This document shows, piece by piece, positions 24,199-31,926 of a stretch of DNA of 55,925 nucleotides (positions within the stretch are counted from its first letter, which is position 1; every line of letters starts with the position of its first letter). The DNA is from an uncultured Bacilli bacterium (GTDB lineage Bacteria; Bacillota_I; Bacilli_A; RFN20; CAG-826). The notes under the pieces were generated by a model. It saw only the letters and a list, made by a program, of their open reading frames with translations. It was not told where the DNA came from and searched no databases. The stretch is taken from the NCBI GenBank assembly GCA_944336335.1, contig CALVLC010000024.1, positions 1-55,925 on the forward strand, written 5' to 3'. A program made the translations under genes and the position numbers.

Positions 24199-24215
24199 TC
24201 TAAAAGGGGTTTACA

Positions 24216-24764
24216 ATGGATTCCAGAAGAAGTCGAACTAAACATATAATAGCTAAAGCATTCATAAGTCTTTTGAATGAAAAAGATTACGATTCAGTTA
24301 GAATTATTGAAATTTGCGAAAAAGCAATGTTATCAAAAGTGACTTTTTACAATAATTTCAAAAACAAAAGACAACTTCTAAATTACATTTTGCTTAATTT
24401 TGAAGACAAAATTAAAAAGGAGATTTCTGAATTTTCGTCTCGTCGTCAATCCACAAAAGATGCTATTTACGGAATTGTGAAAATTACATACAGAAATATT
24501 TTAAACAATCAAGATATGCTTCAAAAACTCTTACTTTCTAGAAATGCTTCCATAGCGTTTTTAGAATTGAGAGACTTTATTTATGTAGAAATCTTAAAGA
24601 ACGTTAATTCTTTACAACCTGAAGATAAAAGAAAAATACCAAAGGAATATTTCGCAGCATTTTATAGTGGCGCAATTGCAAGCATTCTACCGATGATTCT
24701 TACTACTTCAATAGATAAAGGCCCTATTTTAGATGAATCATTGCTAGTAAAATTGTTTAGTTAA
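24216..24764 (+). CDS. TetR/AcrR family transcriptional regulator
   Basis: N-terminal HTH (RTKHIIAKAF..ICEKAMLSKVTFYNNFKNK); divergent from the ABC operon. Confidence 0.92.
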   Translation: MDSRRSRTKHIIAKAFISLLNEKDYDSVRIIEICEKAMLSKVTFYNNFKNKRQLLNYILLNFEDKIKKEISEFSSRRQSTKDAIYGIVKITYRNILNNQDMLQKLLLSRNASIAFLELRDFIYVEILKNVNSLQPEDKRKIPKEYFAAFYSGAIASILPMILTTSIDKGPILDESLLVKLFS

Positions 24765-24856
24765 TACTCTATCCTTCCTGAAATTATCCGATATTTTTGC
24801 GTACATTTATTTTTGAATGACACATTTTCTTGTTTAAACTTTAGTTAACAAATTTG

Positions 24857-24885
24857 TTGCATTGTGCTTTTTACTTGTGTAACAT
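24857..24885 (+). promoter_or_regulatory. Probable promoter of tRNA-Thr
   Basis: TTGCAT-N17-TAACAT, 11 nt upstream of the tRNA. Confidence 0.55.
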
Positions 24886-24896
24886 AATAGAGTCTC

Positions 24897-24970
24897 GCAA
24901 TAGTAGTTAAATGGTATAACGGATCCATGGTAAGGATCTATTCGTAGTTCGATTCTGCGCTATTGCACCA
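24897..24970 (+). tRNA. tRNA-Thr(GGT)
   Basis: GCAATAG/CTATTGC acceptor, GATCC-AT GGT AA-GGATC anticodon arm, CGTAG-TTCGATT-CTGCG T arm, ACCA. Confidence 0.95.
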
Positions 24971-24982
24971 CATTATGTATCG

Positions 24983-25005
24983 AAGACTGGGAGACCAGTC
25001 TTTTT
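24983..25005 (+). terminator. Intrinsic terminator after tRNA-Thr
   Basis: AAGACTGG-GAGA-CCAGTCTT running into a T tract. Confidence 0.85.
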
Positions 25006-25068
25006 ATGTGGTGCATAGCGCAGTATCGAAACCCTTCCCAATCTACAGCCTTATACCATTTAACTACT
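25006..25068 (-). pseudogene. Inverted tRNA-Thr-derived sequence lacking the anticodon arm
   Basis: Minus strand AGTAGTTAAATGGTATAA (exact D-arm copy), then 20 unrelated nt, then TTCGATACTGCGCTATGCACCACAT (T loop, 3' acceptor strand, CCA). Confidence 0.75.
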
Positions 25069-25154
25069 TCCATGTTCGACTCCTTCCTTAAAATAATAGA
25101 AACAGAAAGTTTGAACAAGATTGAACCTATCGGATTTTCCTCTTCATTTATATT

Positions 25155-26438
25155 TTAAAATAGACTCAACTGTTCGTGTCTTTCTTGTCTGACAAATTTT
25201 TTAGGGTTTAATTTACATGTTTTAATGCAGTAATTTAACAAATTTTTAGCTGCATTAATATCTCTATCAGCTTTAAAACCACATTCACATTCAATTTCAT
25301 CTTTAAAAGCATCCCAATTATGCATTTCTTTATGCAGTTTTCCACAGTTCGAACAAATTTGACTAGATTTAAAATATCTATCTGCCTTAATTAAGGTTCT
25401 ATTATATTTACTGGCCTTTATTTCAAGAGCATGAAAGAAAGACGAGAGCCTCGACTTATTCACTTGTGTTCTCAAATTTATATTTTCATACATTTCTTCG
25501 ATTGAAATGTTTTCAATACAAATATACTGGTATTTCTTGCATATAACTTCAGCAATCTGATTATATTGATATATCCTATAGTTCGTTAATTTTTCAAAAG
25601 CTCTTGTTAATTTATATAGTAATCTTTTAACATTTTTAGAATTTTTATTATTACCATTCTTTTTTAAAGTTTCACGATAAAATTGCCTTATTTTGACTAT
25701 TCGGTCCATTCCGGAATCAAGAACTTTTTTATCTAAATTATATTTAGCAATACTTTCATCAGAACCTGCCACAGTAATATTTGTTCTTATGCCAACATCA
25801 ATTCCACAAGCTAGAGCTTCAGGACTAACATCTTCTCTTCTTTTATAATAAATACATCTTAAATAGTATCTACCTTCTGATTTAATAAGAACAAACTTGT
25901 TGTAATTCCTAGAGTTCAAGTTTTTAGGCCTTACTTTAATCTTAATAGAACGTAAATTAAAAACGGCGTGGTTATCGATAATTTTTAACGATCTTCCAGT
26001 TAATTTAATAACTTCTTTTTCATACTCAATAATCGAATAATTCGGTTGTTTTTTAACATAATTTCGCAACTTTTTGCTTTCAAAAAGTGAAAATGCTCTG
26101 TCCGCAACATTAGCAAAATGATCTAAATAAAGATAATTAGAAAAAGTATATCTTTTAGATTCTCTAAATTTTTTAAACATTCCAAAAACAAAAGGTCTTA
26201 GTTCACTACTTGGAATATTGTTATAATATGGATTATAAGCCACAAAACGAGTTTTGATTTCTTTATATACGTACTTTTTTAACCTATGATAAAAATCAAA
26301 TTCACGATCAAGAAATTTCACTTCTTTTTTTGTTGGATAAAGTCGATATGTATCAACTTTTAAATAAATCGGTTCTCTCATAATATTTTTTAAGATAGGC
26401 AACATTGCGCGATAACATCGCTTAGTTTCTTCAACCAT
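25155..26438 (-). CDS. tnpB: TnpB/Cas12f-like RNA-guided endonuclease, catalytic triad intact (paralog A)
   Basis: YRLYPT N-terminal motif, RuvC-I GIDVG (D214), RuvC-II ICIEN (E309), SSQICSNCG..CECG zinc finger, RuvC-III DRDINAAKNL (D393). Start may be Met20 (26381) by comparison with the paralog. Confidence 0.92.
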   Translation of the reverse strand: MVEETKRCYRAMLPILKNIMREPIYLKVDTYRLYPTKKEVKFLDREFDFYHRLKKYVYKEIKTRFVAYNPYYNNIPSSELRPFVFGMFKKFRESKRYTFSNYLYLDHFANVADRAFSLFESKKLRNYVKKQPNYSIIEYEKEVIKLTGRSLKIIDNHAVFNLRSIKIKVRPKNLNSRNYNKFVLIKSEGRYYLRCIYYKRREDVSPEALACGIDVGIRTNITVAGSDESIAKYNLDKKVLDSGMDRIVKIRQFYRETLKKNGNNKNSKNVKRLLYKLTRAFEKLTNYRIYQYNQIAEVICKKYQYICIENISIEEMYENINLRTQVNKSRLSSFFHALEIKASKYNRTLIKADRYFKSSQICSNCGKLHKEMHNWDAFKDEIECECGFKADRDINAAKNLLNYCIKTCKLNPKKFVRQERHEQLSLF

Positions 26439-26460
26439 AACGCGCCAATCGCGCGCTTAT
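26405..26460 (-). ncRNA. Candidate structured RNA/ssDNA element at the 5' end of tnpB paralog A
   Basis: GC-rich island with hairpins ATAAGCGCGC-GATTG-GCGCGTTAT and GCGAT-GTT-ATCGC; shares blocks with 27885-27937. Confidence 0.45.
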
Positions 26461-26652
26461 TTACTTTCTTTTAAAAGATTTCAATTAATAAATATAAATT
26501 AAATAAAATGCCTAGTAGAGGTTATTAATGAACAAAAGTAAGAAGAAAAATAGATTCTAATATTTTAAATTTTGAGATAGCACTAAAGCACATCAGCTTA
26601 ATTAATGCTGTTTCTTCGTTTTATTTATTAAACATAAATTCATTGATGTTTT

Positions 26653-27855
26653 TTAGAAAAGCTCAAGTTGTTTTACATTCTCTTTTTTGAAGAAAAAACG
26701 GTTTTTCAATCCACATTTATTAATTAAATAAGAAAGAAGATTAATTCCGGCGTTTAAATCTTTATCAACTGTTGCCCCACAATCACAATGTAAAATGTTT
26801 GATGAATCATCATGAGTTAAAGCTCCGCATTCATGACAAATTTTTCCAATATCATATCCTAAATCGACATAAACTATTTTGGTGTTAAACTTTTCCGTAT
26901 AATGATTCAAGCTTTTATAAAATTCATTAAATAAGTATTTTTCAATAATTGTTTTCTGACTATTATTATAAAAATAGTTAAGATTTGCAGGTTTTTGTAT
27001 AGAAATATAATCGTATTTTTTAACAATATCTAATATCACTCTAGTATATTTTTGCCTTATTTTTCTTCTTAATTTTTCATAACAATCATCCGATTTTCTT
27101 TCTAGACGTAAAACATTATTTGATCTAAATCCACCATTATGCTTAAGACATTGTTTATGATATGTAGCAATTTTTACTAGGCGATCAATATTATAACTTT
27201 CACTCTTAAGTTCAAGATTATAAGTGGTGAAATTGTTATTTGAATCATAAACTTTAATTGATGAAAAATCACTAATAACAATTGAAGCTTCAATTTCCTC
27301 TTTTGCGTCTAAAATCTTTTCTTTATACGTTTGCCCAAATAGATAAAATTCATTATTTCTTTTCTCAACATAAAGATATCGGAAATTTCTAAAATTTTTA
27401 TTTTTAGGACTGATTTTTCCCTTTATTTTGCAGTTTAGGAACTCAACATTTTGCCATCCCATTTTAAAACTTTCTCGATCAAAACGAATTACACTACTTG
27501 AATTATAAAATGGATAATTTGTAAGTTTGACTTCTTCTTTATCTTTTTTAAGTTCAAACCTTTGAAACATTTTGAAAGATGCGAAATCAAAATGGTCAAT
27601 ATATGAATAGGAAGAGAAATCATAACGCTTACTTTCTTTAAATCTTTTTATAATTCCATATACGAGTGGTCTTAAAGAAGATGGTGCTATCCTTTTTTCA
27701 CCACCTGTAATATTGAATTTTTCTTTAATCTTTTTAGTCAAAAATTTTGTTAAACGGTCTAGAAATCTGAATTCTCGATCTAATTTTGCCTTTTCCTCTT
27801 TCGTCAAAATTAGACGAAAATGTTCAAAGTCCATATAAATATTGTCTAATTTCAT
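26653..27855 (-). CDS. TnpB-like protein, predicted nuclease-dead (paralog B)
   Basis: Collinear with paralog A (LDREF, LRP, ESKRY.FS.Y.Y.DHF, DR.VKI); zinc finger CHEC..CDCG and DKDLNAGINL kept, but RuvC-I reads ASIVISD and RuvC-II reads ISIQK. Confidence 0.85.
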   Translation of the reverse strand: MKLDNIYMDFEHFRLILTKEEKAKLDREFRFLDRLTKFLTKKIKEKFNITGGEKRIAPSSLRPLVYGIIKRFKESKRYDFSSYSYIDHFDFASFKMFQRFELKKDKEEVKLTNYPFYNSSSVIRFDRESFKMGWQNVEFLNCKIKGKISPKNKNFRNFRYLYVEKRNNEFYLFGQTYKEKILDAKEEIEASIVISDFSSIKVYDSNNNFTTYNLELKSESYNIDRLVKIATYHKQCLKHNGGFRSNNVLRLERKSDDCYEKLRRKIRQKYTRVILDIVKKYDYISIQKPANLNYFYNNSQKTIIEKYLFNEFYKSLNHYTEKFNTKIVYVDLGYDIGKICHECGALTHDDSSNILHCDCGATVDKDLNAGINLLSYLINKCGLKNRFFFKKENVKQLELF

Positions 27856-27864
27856 TGTTTAAAT

Positions 27865-27946
27865 GAGTATTATTATAAAAGTTGTTGTGTGTTTCCACTT
27901 AGCATCTTCTGCCTTAACGCCTCAACCATGCGCTTATAATAACCTC
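27865..27946 (-). ncRNA. Candidate structured RNA leader of tnpB paralog B
   Basis: Closing stem GAGGTTATTATAA..TTATAATAATACTC enclosing ATAAGCGC-ATGGTTGA..CTAA-GTG-GAAA-CAC-ACAA. Confidence 0.45.
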
Positions 27947-28017
27947 TTAATTCCTCCTTTCACTAATATAAAGGAGTTTGTTTCAAAAAAATTAAAAGAT
28001 TTTTAAAAAAAATTAAA

Positions 28018-30624
28018 CTATTCATTATTTCTTAAAATTTCAATTGGTTTATTTCTTTTGATGACTATATAAGGGATTAATAAAGCAATTAAAATATAGA
28101 GCAAGATGAATAAAGCTAAAACAATGGTTGAAGCAAAATTATAATATAAGAAATTTAAGCCTGGTAAAGCACCATATCCTAAATAGCGTTCGACGCTTTC
28201 AATTAATATTCCATTACAAAGGTTATTTCCTAAATAAGTTCCAATAAAAAGAAAGGCACAAGATAAAATCATCATCACAATCAATGTATTAACATAAAGT
28301 TTATTAATTTGTGAGATTTGTAATCCTAAAGCCCTAAAGATTCCAATATTGCTCTTATCTTTTCTTAAAATAAGGAAAACTACTAAAATAACAAAGAAAA
28401 ACGCAAGAACAAGCATTACAATTAATAGAATTTGGAATATATCAGCAAAAAGCAAAATAACTTCTTCAGCTCTAAAATAAACCATATCCATTAGATATTG
28501 AGAACTTAACTCTTTTTCTCTCATCAAACTTATAAGTTCATCGCTCAAATTATAATCTTCAAAATATAGTCTAATCGGTGTATAAGATGCTAGTAAAATC
28601 TCTTTAAATAATTCGGGCGAGACATATATTTTCTCCACACCGGTTAAAGGAAACAAGTTTATAATTTTCAGATTATCGTAAGAAATTTTTGGAGAATCAG
28701 AGAAATAGCTTGTAAAACTTCTTAACGTGATATTGGCATTTTTATATTCATTTTCATCAACCTCAGAAATATTCTTGTAATCTTTATCTGTTAAAATATT
28801 TAGAAGGTCCAAATTTAACTTAATTTCATTGCCTTTGATATCGTGGTCAAAACTTATTCTTAAGTCAGTGAAATCAAATTGTATTTCTTTGTCATTAAAT
28901 ACAATATTATTTTTATTAAAATAGGCATCGAATTTTAAATCGTCGCCCTGCAGCACTAAATCAACATAATCATTAATAAAATTAGGATTTATGCTAAATA
29001 AAGACGAATAATAATCAAATAGCTCATCATAAAACGCAGAAGCATCGTTTACTTCATCCCCATGTTCAATAATTTCAGAAATTTCACTAGCAAATTTTTC
29101 TTCATAATTAGTATCAATAACTGCATCCACTTTAAGCCCAAAATCAAATTCAAAATTTAAAATTTCTTCGTAGGTGGTAGGTGGTGCTACAGAGGAAAAT
29201 TTATCATACGCAAAGCAATCGGCCATATAATCAGTAATTATTACACCGGCAGAATGCTCTTTAATTTCTCCTGCCGCAAGAGTCAATTCACCCTTTTCAT
29301 TACCAAATAATTTTTTTAAATAGTTTAAATCACAAATAATCGCTCCATTTGTTTGATTATATAAATATGGACGTGAAATGTAAGACTTTTTTCCTGATTG
29401 TCTTTCGCGTGCGCCATAATAGAATAAAGAAACTGGATACATTTTATAAACTTTTCCATCATAACTTTTTTCTATTTCATCAATGTCACTTTCGGGAATT
29501 TCTTCAAGAGAAGTAATTCCTTTTTCTTCTTCGCTGATGGTTTTATATTTTCCAAAAACTGGAGCAGAACCATTTCCATACATTTCTAGTGCATAGTTTT
29601 GTCTACTTTCTTCACAGTTATAAATCGACAAATTATATCCAATATTTCCTACAACAAGTAAAAATGCAACTATAAAGCTCATCAAAACAACAAAAAAAGA
29701 TCTCTTGAGCAAAAATTTATAACTATATTTAAAAAGTCCAGCACCTTTAATTTTATTAACGCTAACTTCTTCACTTTTATAATTTTCACTTTTCGTAGTA
29801 GAAAAGTTATAGCCGTTTTGATAAATATGAGTGTTTGGATTCTTCGAATAATAATTTAATAATTTTAATTCGTTATAATTTAAAGATTTGTTGAATGGAA
29901 GGTATGAATTCCCATAACTATCAACAAAAAAAGCATTTTTCTGACTTCCATTTTTGCTTAAATCACTAATAATTTTTCCATCTTGTAATGTAATAATTCT
30001 ATCTGCATAACTATATGCATCATCTTGATTGTGGGTCACCATTACAATCAACATTTCTTTCGAATATTTTTCGAGGATATTCAAAATCAAAAGCGATGTG
30101 CTATGATCGACATTGCCAGTTGGTTCATCAGCAAAAAGCACCCTTGGTTTTTTAATAAGTGCTCTCAACAAGGAAACCCTAGCCCTTTCTCCTGCTGAAA
30201 GTTCACTTGGATACTTTTTTAAATAATCTTCGTGAAGTCCAAATTCTTTTAAATAATCTCGAAAAACCTGCAAATCTAAGGTTTTTTCTGAAATATCAAG
30301 TACGATTTTTAAGTTGTCTAATACTGTAAGCTCTTCTACTAAAGCATCGCGCTGAAAAGCGAATCCGAAATCGGTATTTCTTAAAACTGTTTTTTCTTTT
30401 TCACTTAATGCATCGTAATCTAGACCATTATAAGAAATTTTTCCTTTTGTTTTTGCATCTAATGTTGAAAGAACATTTAAAAAAGTTGACTTTCCGCAAC
30501 CTGATTTACCTAAAACAATAACAAAACCTTTGTTTGGTAAAGTTAATGAAACATTAGATAAAGCCACCGTCTTTATCTTTTTTGTACTATTATATATTTT
30601 TGTTAAATCTTCAATTTGAAGCAT
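28018..30624 (-). CDS. ABC transporter ATPase-permease fusion (MacB/FtsX-like)
   Basis: GKSGCGKS, LSAGE, FADEPTG, VTH; C-terminal IGIFRALG FtsX motif and TM helices. Confidence 0.9.
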   Translation of the reverse strand: MLQIEDLTKIYNSTKKIKTVALSNVSLTLPNKGFVIVLGKSGCGKSTFLNVLSTLDAKTKGKISYNGLDYDALSEKEKTVLRNTDFGFAFQRDALVEELTVLDNLKIVLDISEKTLDLQVFRDYLKEFGLHEDYLKKYPSELSAGERARVSLLRALIKKPRVLFADEPTGNVDHSTSLLILNILEKYSKEMLIVMVTHNQDDAYSYADRIITLQDGKIISDLSKNGSQKNAFFVDSYGNSYLPFNKSLNYNELKLLNYYSKNPNTHIYQNGYNFSTTKSENYKSEEVSVNKIKGAGLFKYSYKFLLKRSFFVVLMSFIVAFLLVVGNIGYNLSIYNCEESRQNYALEMYGNGSAPVFGKYKTISEEEKGITSLEEIPESDIDEIEKSYDGKVYKMYPVSLFYYGARERQSGKKSYISRPYLYNQTNGAIICDLNYLKKLFGNEKGELTLAAGEIKEHSAGVIITDYMADCFAYDKFSSVAPPTTYEEILNFEFDFGLKVDAVIDTNYEEKFASEISEIIEHGDEVNDASAFYDELFDYYSSLFSINPNFINDYVDLVLQGDDLKFDAYFNKNNIVFNDKEIQFDFTDLRISFDHDIKGNEIKLNLDLLNILTDKDYKNISEVDENEYKNANITLRSFTSYFSDSPKISYDNLKIINLFPLTGVEKIYVSPELFKEILLASYTPIRLYFEDYNLSDELISLMREKELSSQYLMDMVYFRAEEVILLFADIFQILLIVMLVLAFFFVILVVFLILRKDKSNIGIFRALGLQISQINKLYVNTLIVMMILSCAFLFIGTYLGNNLCNGILIESVERYLGYGALPGLNFLYYNFASTIVLALFILLYILIALLIPYIVIKRNKPIEILRNNE

Positions 30625-30627
30625 AGT

Positions 30628-31926
30628 CTAAGTTAAATCAATTTCTTCAACTAGCAAATCATAAACAAATGAATTAGTAACTTTAACATCTATTACATCT
30701 CCAACTTGATGTTCTTTTTTCTTTAATAAAATAACTTTTCCATCAACATCATCTGGAGCATTAAAATCGCAACTTAATAAATATTCATTATTTTTTTCTG
30801 CAATTACTAAAGCCTTAAATTCTCTTCCGATCATTTCTTTATTAAGTGAGTAAGAAATTTTAGCCTGCATCTCCATGATTTCTTGTTTTCTTTTAATCAT
30901 TGTTGATTCTCTAACTTGATGAGGAAGTGAATATGCTCTAGTTCCTTCTTCTCTAGAATAAGTAAAAACACCTAAATGGTTAAACTTAAATTCATTAATA
31001 AATGATTTAAGTTCTTCAAATTCTTTCTTAGTTTCTCCTGGGAAGCCAACAATTAGAGTCGTTCTTAAAATAGCGTCTGGAATTTCTTTTTTTATTTTCT
31101 TTAAAAGCTCAATGATTGTTTCTTTATCATCTTTACGATTCATGGCTTTTAATAAACGATTATTTACATGCTGCAAAGGAATATCAAAATAATGTGAGCA
31201 CTTTGGATGTGTCTTTATAAATTCAATAAGTTCATCATTAATTCCTTCAGGATATAAATATAAAGTTTTGATAAATTCAATCTCAGGAATTTCATTTAAT
31301 TCTCTCAATAAGTCTACTAAACTAAGCTTTTTTCCTTTAAAATCCTTACCATAACTTGTTGGATCTTGAGCAATTAGGACTAATTCTTTGACGCCATGTT
31401 TAGCTACTTTTTTAGCATACTCCACTAACTCATCTAATGGATAAGAAACAAATCTACCTCTTATATAAGGAATTGCACAATAAGCACAAAATTTATTACA
31501 TCCTTCGGCTATTTTTAGATAAGTTATAGCTTTATCATTGTTAATTCTTTCACTAATATCAAAAGCTGGTAAAGTAACCTCATCATCGAATAATTTTGAA
31601 ATTAACCCTGGAAGTTTTGTATATTCATCTTTAAAAGGAATCCATAAATCAACTTCAGGAATTGCTTCTTTAAGTTCATCAAAATATCTTTCAACTAAGC
31701 AGCCCACAACAAATGTTTTCTTTTTATAAGTCAAACAATCTAAGATTGTATCGATATTTTCTTTTTTCGCACTTAAAATAAAGCCACAAGTATTAATAAT
31801 AATGGCATCTGCTTCTTCTAATGAAGATGTAATCTCAAAATAAGGCTTTTTAAAAAGCGCCAATATAGCTTCACTATCAACTTGGTTTTTAGCGCATCCT
31901 AAAGACACTAAAGCAATTTTCTTCAT
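30628..31926 (-). CDS. rimO: Ribosomal protein S12 methylthiotransferase
   Basis: SLGCAKNQVDSE, NTCGFI, EGCNKFCAYC, APDDVDG in the TRAM domain. Confidence 0.94.
   Translation of the reverse strand: MKKIALVSLGCAKNQVDSEAILALFKKPYFEITSSLEEADAIIINTCGFILSAKKENIDTILDCLTYKKKTFVVGCLVERYFDELKEAIPEVDLWIPFKDEYTKLPGLISKLFDDEVTLPAFDISERINNDKAITYLKIAEGCNKFCAYCAIPYIRGRFVSYPLDELVEYAKKVAKHGVKELVLIAQDPTSYGKDFKGKKLSLVDLLRELNEIPEIEFIKTLYLYPEGINDELIEFIKTHPKCSHYFDIPLQHVNNRLLKAMNRKDDKETIIELLKKIKKEIPDAILRTTLIVGFPGETKKEFEELKSFINEFKFNHLGVFTYSREEGTRAYSLPHQVRESTMIKRKQEIMEMQAKISYSLNKEMIGREFKALVIAEKNNEYLLSCDFNAPDDVDGKVILLKKKEHQVGDVIDVKVTNSFVYDLLVEEIDLT

Follow-up and report, generated by a model that had tools for sequence, protein, structure and literature searches.

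The contig CALVLC010000024.1 (assembly GCA_944336335.1) of an uncultured Bacilli bacterium, whose 55,925 nt we analyzed at full length and refer to as the window, carries two adjacent genes of the TnpB family, designated A and B, each preceded by a conserved, structured RNA (Table 1). The window belongs to a genome bin, G000, in a genus of gut bacteria with small, low-GC genomes; labels of the form G0xx denote species genomes of the same genus. The two proteins align end to end with 34% identity across 412 aligned residues (E = 9e-61), which bears out an earlier note, made from the letters of the window alone, that had described two co-oriented, diverged and collinear full-length TnpB-like open reading frames (ORFs). 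Both pass the 26.3-bit cut-off of PF07282 (Cas12f1-like TNB), A with 60.9 bits and B with 33.1 bits; A falls slightly under the cut-off of PF01385 (OrfB_IS605; 29.5 against 30.5 bits), and the NCBIfam TnpB models match A (E = 6e-30) and B (E = 2e-8) below their curated cut-offs. The family profile matches the solved structures of ISDra2 TnpB (E = 6e-22), and the nearest outside relatives of the family are ordinary TnpBs at ~27% identity.

Table 1 Features of the A–B locus (positions are those of the window)
Feature	Position	Strand	Description
Gene A	25155-26438	-	Longest ORF 427 aa; TnpB family; triad D214/E309/D393 intact
Gene B	26653-27855	-	400 aa; upstream of A; nuclease-dead TnpB-family protein; V193/Q287/D366
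A RNA core	26397-26458	-	Overlaps the first 14 codons of the longest A ORF
B RNA core	27874-27935	-	Hairpins H1, HM and H2, plus a pseudoknot of the H1 loop with the tail
Extended B RNA	27865-27946	-	Predicted closing stem P1 (27946-27934 with 27878-27865) around the three hairpins
Promoter/Shine-Dalgarno cassette AAACTCCTTTATATTAGTGAAAGGAGG	27952-27978	-	27 nt; upstream of the B RNA
B–A spacer	26439-26652	-	Not conserved with the B 3' flanks of G053/G055
tRNA-Thr(GGU)	24897-24970	+	Convergent with A; downstream landmark kept in G053, G055 and G065
Degenerate tRNA-Thr-like copy	25009-25068	-	3' flank of A; opposite in orientation to the true tRNA gene
ABC ATPase + FtsX permease fusion gene	28018-30624	-	868 aa
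RimO/MiaB-like radical-SAM methylthiotransferase	30628-31926	-	Upstream neighbor of the family gene genus-wide

The two proteins differ in their catalytic motifs in the way that the earlier note had read from the sequence. In the family alignments, A carries GIDVG (D214), CIENI (E309) and DRDINAA (D393), whereas B presents SIVIS in place of the RuvC-I motif (V193, not Asp) and SIQKP in place of RuvC-II (Q287, not Glu), while retaining DKDLNAG (D366) and the zinc-finger cysteines C340/C343/C357/C359 (CxxC...CxC). Orthologues of B at 90, 67 (G053) and 57% (G055) identity all lack the RuvC-I Asp. The four B-clade proteins are intact ORFs of 400–413 aa, and the RuvC-I Asp is lost in all four, the RuvC-II Glu in two and the RuvC-III Asp in two. 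Among the non-B alignment rows, the first two catalytic motifs are present in 23 of 23 and the third in 22 of 23, the partial G043 row stopping short of the third. The RuvC site is dead throughout the B clade. An AlphaFold model of B derived from 71 sequences reached a predicted local distance difference test score (pLDDT) of 86.9; an earlier model from a 4-row alignment (pLDDT 47.7) was set aside. The best Foldseek matches of this model are Fanzor2, ISFba1 TnpB, ISDra2 TnpB and Cas12f, over the full length, with E values of 8e-16 to 5e-15 and target-normalised TM-scores of 0.55–0.69 against 9b0l, 8iaz and 8h1j. The proteins are members of the TnpB family and share the TnpB fold. Translation of A probably begins at Met21 (MREPIYLKV; ATG at 26378), which would give a protein of 407 aa, because the 92% identical orthologue P0005 begins there and because codons 1–20 overlap the conserved upstream RNA. 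The next orthologues of A, those of G065 and P0006, are 66–67% identical.

The family behaves as a host gene across the genus. A search with A matched 17 of 60 species genomes at E ≤ 1e-20, with one match in each and two in G000; leaving out G004, which has a different, long-branch TnpB, and G001, in which the match is a fragment at a contig end, gives 15 carriers. The gene is single-copy in 14 of these 15: an A-type gene stands alone in 12 genomes, B stands alone in two sister species (G053 and G055), and only G000 has both. At all 13 loci with enough flank (the contig of G054 is too short to count), the family gene directly follows a 4-alpha-glucanotransferase and RimO/MiaB-like radical S-adenosylmethionine (radical-SAM) gene pair. 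In G053 and G055, the order is RimO, B, tRNA-Thr, TetR and an ATP-binding cassette (ABC) operon, and A is found nowhere in either genome. The maximum-likelihood tree of the family and that of the two flanking proteins agree in their groupings, sharing (G068,G059), (G008,G063), (G052,(G018,G060)) and (G055,(G053,G000)). Ratios of non-synonymous to synonymous substitution rates (dN/dS) are 0.044 (dS 0.68), 0.065 and 0.04 for close A-type pairs, 0.10 for A against the G065 gene and at most 0.16–0.30 for B pairs, for which dS is saturated. The lineage is thus fixed in position, vertically inherited and under purifying selection. No Y1 transposase (PF01797) was matched across the 80%-complete G000 genome, and no repeats resembling insertion sequence (IS) ends flank the locus. 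The single copy, fixed site, matching trees, low dN/dS and lack of a Y1 transposase together indicate that the family is domesticated and not mobile. The synteny comparison that the earlier note had called for therefore came out on the side of a host-fixed gene, and two of the outcomes that it had held against its reading were not seen: the carriers have no multiple mobile copies with IS ends, and B, with four intact orthologues and its dN/dS ceiling, is not decaying neutrally. Viral contigs yielded generic TnpBs only, at no more than 36% identity.

Alignment of the upstream regions revealed an RNA core of ~60 nt with three hairpins that precedes every family gene, A and B included. A covariance model of the core, R1, scores the B RNA at 63.6 bits (E = 1.4e-14) and the A RNA at 72.7 bits (E = 3.4e-17). 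Compensatory changes occur in 10 of 14 stem pairs in a plain MAFFT alignment of 18 copies, and 88.7% of all alignment cells are paired, compared to 26–44% when the partners are slid by 1–3 columns. The loop of H1 forms a pseudoknot with the tail 3' of the third hairpin (98.5% paired, compared to 25–57% in slid controls, with two of the four pairs compensatory), and this pseudoknot exists in three variants: AUUG/CAAU in the A group, AUCG/CGAU in a far group (G018, G052 and G060) and GUUG/CAAC in the B group. A near-invariant G-U pair sets the RNA strand as that of the gene. The A and B RNAs differ in both helices and pseudoknot. Minimum free energy folds of the G000, G053 and G055 B RNAs all predict the closing stem P1, and in most other leaders, too, the 5' flank is predicted to pair with the tail in such a stem, so that the hairpins would form a compact junction.

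The RNA tracks the family without exception. R1 matches exactly two sites in G000, one ahead of A and one ahead of B; it recovers two copies outside its training set (G047 and G054); and, across the genus, it matches in 15 of 60 genomes, exactly the carriers, always at the gene and with no orphan copy. No match was found at 80 generic TnpB loci of viral contigs, and nothing real in 151 genomes of the order beyond the genus; a match in G114, internal to an 891-aa ORF, was rejected as false. Metagenome contigs scanned with an 18-nt pattern gave mainly chance matches, with true RNA at three of 80 kept loci, all from species already seen, and the order RimO–RNA–TnpB is repeated on three metagenome contigs. 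A search of Rfam at E ≤ 1 gave tRNA only, plus two chance rows far under their gathering scores. The RNA is also the best-conserved part of the locus: between the B loci of G000 and G053 it is 93–98% identical, compared to ~70% for the ORF and 43–48% for the 3' flank, and between A and the G065 gene the corresponding values are 82–85%, ~70% and 33–50%. The existence, structure and strand of the RNA and its strict one-to-one association with the gene are established by these results. Extra units accompany the gene in three genomes. The RNA unit is present as three tandem copies with a 164-nt period in G059 (L037 2664-3054), is doubled in its sister G068 (L036 9174-9398) and is doubled in G054 with the copies 488 nt apart (L024 2671-3230); the sequence 3' of the distal copies is unlike that 3' of the gene-proximal copy.

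The position of the RNA relative to translation signals is unusual. The AAACTCCTTTATATTAGTGAAAGGAGG cassette upstream of the B RNA recurs at eight other G000 loci, at seven of which an ORF of at least 60 aa begins 4–10 nt after it; no such ORF was found at the eighth. The B start codon, by comparison, lies 98 nt past the cassette and has no Shine-Dalgarno (SD) sequence of its own. The cassettes, found on contigs C6 (two sites), C29, C34, C44, C49 (two sites) and C62, are near-identical and palindromic over ~26 nt (CTCCTTT, loop, AAAGGAG), with an AT-rich, TTTTTAAAAA-like stretch upstream, and may represent a common regulatory site or an SD-sequestering hairpin. The cassette upstream of the A RNA is degenerate. 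Because a simple scan also detected no minus-strand terminator in the B–A spacer, the transcript of B may extend through A. In the far group, the start codon lies within the predicted closing stem. Taken with the predicted folds, this arrangement suggests that translation is gated by the fold itself or by a bound protein. Bridging of SD and AUG by the RNA in every member was ruled out as a universal feature by G054 and G047, in which the RNA is followed by an SD or cassette, and by G058/G043, in which the start codon is ~45 nt past it.

We found no sign of the RNA that TnpB genes would be expected to encode at their 3' end. Synonymous identity at the 3' end of the ORF (0.51–0.62, compared to 0.57 overall) shows no excess that would mark a 3' omega-RNA, no conserved 3' flank was detected (the flanks are 33–50% identical), and in four members (G018, G052, G060 and G058) the next ORF begins 0–45 nt after the stop codon. 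To look for guides, G000 was scanned with 14-mers drawn from the 5' region of each gene and with a fuzzy search using the segment 3' of the B pseudoknot. The sole exact second site, 15 nt at C33:28570 between MscL-like and DegV-like genes, has an estimated 0.3 occurrences expected by chance; it was rejected as a B target, being at about chance level and not repeated in G053/G055, where the counts equal those of a reversed-pattern control. A 20/23 match between the tail of the B RNA and the B ORF was likewise taken as chance, because the protein is not conserved there in the orthologues. The sequence that follows the extra RNA copies on their 3' side in G059 and G068 was also searched for: every second site had at least two mismatches, and the two genomes shared none.

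The 3' flank of A contains an 18-nt segment identical to the D-arm of the tRNA-Thr gene, forming a perfect inverted repeat (24902-24919 with 25051-25068). It is at best a putative guide of A. The segment belongs to a near-whole inverted tRNA copy (local alignment score 64, compared to a maximum of 36 among 200 shuffles), and 5' of the match, the real tRNA of G000 and that of G065 have different bases. The real gene and the inverted copy flank a common hairpin at ~24983-25000. G065 shares the inverted copy, which there matches the variant bases of G065's own tRNA. The loci of G068, G059 and G047 are surrounded by shorter palindromes of tRNA ends and by further tRNA fragments, and the B-only loci have none of these features. 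The tRNA-Thr fragments near the locus in G065, G068, G059 and G047 are consistent with debris of an old integration or duplication. The inverted copy itself may be such integration debris, act as a long terminator in both directions or be linked to A function.

The surroundings of the pair are those that the earlier note had described, namely a tRNA and host genes: tRNA-Thr(GGU), a TetR regulator, ABC transporter genes and a radical-SAM methylthiotransferase. The ABC ATPase/FtsX fusion gene separates the radical-SAM gene from B in G000 only; in the 13 other loci with flank, the radical-SAM gene has the family gene as its next ORF. Also as that note had stated, no tnpA or CRISPR array lies nearby: the window contains no tandem array, and the sole cas1 of G000 is away from the locus, on contig C18 (19009-19719, 104 bits), so that G000 probably has a CRISPR-Cas system elsewhere. 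The stretch 24200-27900, with TetR, tRNA-Thr, A and B, is also present, with 17 differences, on a 4,712-nt contig of a different public run; because this independent contig crosses the pair, the tandem layout is no assembly artefact. Pieces from two further studies, including chicken gut metagenomes, span both genes. With 80% completeness and 3.8% contamination, the G000 bin measures 2.0 Mb, compared to 0.8–1.7 Mb for the 59 other species genomes of the genus, and may contain more than one strain or extra material; the window contig itself is syntenic with its relatives. The only further TnpB of these genomes is part of an IS607-type element, consisting of a 223-aa serine recombinase and a 428-aa TnpB, that is intact in G041 (C1) and G042 (C3) and decayed to ORFs of 131 and 255 aa in G000 (C45). 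In the far group (L043 5726-6990, L044 9206-9781 and L045 9191-10437), an ORF of ~190 aa directly follows the TnpB gene, joined in G018 and G060 by a DUF3800 protein; the downstream ORF of G052 has weak likeness to a PBECR3 nuclease (28.9 bits, cut-off 30). The far-group TnpB and these ORFs could form an operon with a defense or toxin flavor.

The phylogeny places the origin of B within the family. The B clade lies inside the A-type clade, which has 100/100 support, on a stem of 1.41 substitutions per site, and A groups with the G065 gene, also with 100/100 support. An approximately unbiased (AU) test rejected B as the sister of G000 A alone (p = 0.026), and with it a recent duplication, and did not reject B as the sister of the line leading to G000 A and G065 (p = 0.46). 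As judged from these trees, the split between A and B is old; B would have left the A line no later than the ancestor of four closely related species and would have evolved fast thereafter. Two histories fit this pattern. In one, a duplication at or before the ancestor of G065, G055, G053 and G000 was followed by three losses; in the other, B arose in place from the resident gene, and a G065-like relative later supplied A anew. The old duplication under selection that the earlier note had proposed is thus upheld as to the age of the split (stem length and AU test) and as to purifying selection (dN/dS), and the topology does not separate duplication from a regain of A. Under either history, the existence of B-only and A-only species means that each form is viable without the other, which weakens any reading of the pair as a heterodimer or as obligate partners.

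Several known systems bear on how the locus may work. In IscB and IsrB, the effector gene is immediately preceded, on its own strand, by a large pseudoknotted omega-RNA, and in the TnpB/Cas12 line, the guide lies 3' of the scaffold. The RNAs of A and B resemble the former in being pseudoknotted, upstream and on the same strand; the proteins differ from IscB in being TnpBs with RuvC and a TNB zinc finger, and no guide was identified. With canonical IS200/IS605 TnpBs (ISDra2 and ISFba1; PDB 8h1j, 8exa and 8iaz), the family shares the fold and, in A and the non-B members, the DED triad and zinc finger, but it differs in having no TnpA in G000, in being single-copy and syntenic with the tree of host genes, and in having a family-specific RNA upstream and no 3' omega-RNA signal. 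Cas12f, which acts as an asymmetric homodimer and is among the fold matches of B (PDB 7c7l and 8j12), is likewise a small protein of the same fold; here, by contrast, there is no CRISPR array or cas gene at the locus, each paralogue occurs solo in other species and nothing supports a dimer. The closest comparison is with TldR proteins (TnpB-like nuclease-dead repressors, with fliC_P- and oppF-associated clades), which, according to Wiegand et al. (bioRxiv 10.1101/2023.11.30.569447), are nuclease-dead TnpB derivatives of polyphyletic origin, comprising 506 proteins with guide scaffolds of ~97–100 nt. At the level of sequence, B qualifies as a TldR: it is TnpB-like, its RuvC site is inactivated clade-wide with one to three acidic residues lost, and it has neither tnpA nor IS ends in a fixed, non-transposon neighborhood that is the same in G000, G053 and G055. 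Like the oppF clade of TldRs, it adjoins ABC transporter genes. It departs from TldRs, as there described, in five respects: its conserved RNA is upstream and not downstream; no guide, target-adjacent motif or promoter target was found above control level; its zinc-finger/RuvC C-terminal domain is kept; a nuclease-competent paralogue lies next door; and its nuclease-competent relatives are host-fixed and vertically inherited, not transposon-borne.

The reading that we favor, at roughly even odds (a probability of about 0.5), is that A and B belong to a genus-specific, non-transposon TnpB lineage in which A is of the ancestral type and B is a dead, TldR-like derivative, each having its own upstream RNA. 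With its nuclease triad intact, the ancestral-type copy A would still be able to cut DNA. The proteins probably each bind the RNA encoded upstream of them, given that the two have diverged in parallel and that the RNA matches a TldR guide scaffold in size; the complex of A would probably keep nuclease activity, and that of B would probably bind DNA without cutting it and act as a regulator. As the B RNA lies between a strong SD cassette and an SD-less start, its fold or a bound protein may also set the level of B translation. The tandem state in G000 would be a kept duplicate pair, resolved to one gene or the other in the sister species, and no obligate two-part machine. A more detailed version, in which the upstream RNA is the partner RNA of a domesticated TnpB, encoded 5' and doubling as a translational gate, the nuclease form is kept for host benefit, and G000 preserves a step from nuclease to regulator with mutually incompatible RNAs, is one that we advance tentatively and regard as doubtful.

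Several observations weigh against this favored reading. No guide or DNA target emerged, and the searches with RNA-adjacent sequence gave matches at control level. The characterized TnpB and TldR guide RNAs covered in the TldR preprint (bioRxiv 10.1101/2023.11.30.569447) are all encoded downstream, with the guide at the 3' end; were such an RNA encoded upstream, its guide would fall on the start of the gene itself, a stretch that in B is predicted to pair with the 5' flank. The genus was sampled with one genome per species, several of them incomplete. The placement of B within the A-type clade fits a retained duplicate and a regained A alike. Because its own cassette is degenerate, A may be poorly expressed or heading for loss. 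A near-identical strain (run X1) shows four non-synonymous and three synonymous changes in B, compared to one and three in A. The B changes include W134R (window 27456), at a Trp that is invariant in the four B orthologues, on a contig of depth ~6.5. These changes hint at weaker recent constraint on B, in counts that are too small to test.

The alternatives concern the RNA, the relation of the two proteins and the history of the tandem. The RNA could be a cis-acting leader only, affecting translation or stability of the TnpB mRNA, with the proteins using another RNA or none. Such a leader would account for the RNA being placed, in the B clade, G065 and the far group, between a canonical strong SD and an SD-less start codon when the same cassette elsewhere lies 4–10 nt from the start; for the predicted closing stems or pseudoknot that draw SD and AUG together, with the far-group AUG inside a stem; and for the lack of a free guide-like segment or target. 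We regard this explanation as a serious rival, if the less likely one. Against it stand that SD bridging is not universal (G054, G047 and G058/G043), that the RNA is repeated in two independent lineages (G059/G068 and G054), in which extra copies have no obvious use to a leader, that its sequence, beyond its fold, is 93–98% conserved in B and that its length of ~80–110 nt with a pseudoknot is the size of known TldR guide scaffolds. A different proposal concerns the tandem itself, which may be recent and transitional, with B resident in the (G000, G053, G055) group and A regained from a G065-like relative and now decaying. A regain needs one gain in place of three losses, and it agrees with the 100/100 grouping of A and the G065 gene, with their shared pseudo-tRNA 3' flank, which is absent from B-only loci, and with the degenerate A cassette. 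By branch-length arithmetic, the distance between A and the G065 gene is 1.8 times that of the flanks, compared to 3.7–4.8 times for deeper A-type pairs, but other close pairs have ratios of 0.8–3.3, so that 1.8 is not unusual. An old duplication followed by losses yields the same topology, and decay sits poorly with an intact A ORF, three synonymous changes to one non-synonymous between strains and a dN/dS of 0.10 against G065. We consider a regain a serious alternative, if a somewhat less than probable one.

Cooperation between A and B, whether as a heterodimer with one live RuvC or as a mutually dependent nuclease and regulator, was the kind of arrangement that the earlier note had suggested as possible. 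A and B lie next to each other in the same orientation with no terminator detected between them, the lack of a cassette of its own at A fits co-transcription with B, both genes are intact in at least two further strains, and both are probably present in a ~90%-identical relative (P0001 and P0005, each from a 3,003-bp contig). This suggestion is nevertheless not supported: at the same site, B is the sole gene in G053/G055 and an A-type gene the sole one in 12 genomes, each gene has a separate RNA that differs in helices and pseudoknot, and no second two-copy genome was present among the 60 searched. To our knowledge, solved TnpB structures are monomers, which we also counted against a heterodimer. 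A complex prediction of A (residues 21–427) with B scored 0.06, compared to a mark of 0.32, and weighs neither way. We therefore judge a cooperative pair improbable. Least plausible of all is that the genes are ordinary decaying IS200/IS605 remnants or a chimera of assembly or binning. The ordinary TnpBs that are the nearest outside relatives, at ~27% identity, and a bin that is large for the genus might point that way, yet dN/dS values of 0.04–0.3, synteny, single copy number, a genus-wide match to the flank tree and an independent contig spanning TetR–tRNA–A–B leave this explanation, which we tested, without support.

The earlier note had stated that no system with this layout was described. 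That statement stands for the tandem layout only, because nuclease-dead TnpBs are described as TldRs. A narrow literature search turned up neither a TnpB preceded by a conserved RNA nor a tandem of an active and a dead gene, although the 506-protein TldR list could include relatives of B, and neither arrangement is described in the available portions of the TldR preprint or of the follow-up by Xiao et al. (bioRxiv 10.64898/2026.09.22.753285). In the Discussion of their preprint, the TldR authors ask that TnpBs in non-mobile contexts, both nuclease-active and nuclease-dead, be sought (bioRxiv 10.1101/2023.11.30.569447).

The interest of the locus lies mainly in the combination of a fixed, nuclease-competent TnpB lineage, a dead-nuclease offshoot and a new upstream RNA. 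A TnpB lineage with an intact triad behaves as a host gene genus-wide, being single-copy and syntenic with a dN/dS of ~0.04. The transition from nuclease to dead protein can be studied here with natural controls, in the form of A-only species, B-only species and G000 with both. If the RNA is only a leader, it would still be an unusual structured insert between a Shine-Dalgarno sequence and a start codon. If it is the partner of the protein, it would widen the RNA architectures of the TnpB/Cas12 line and provide two small effector–RNA pairs that are likely to be mutually incompatible.

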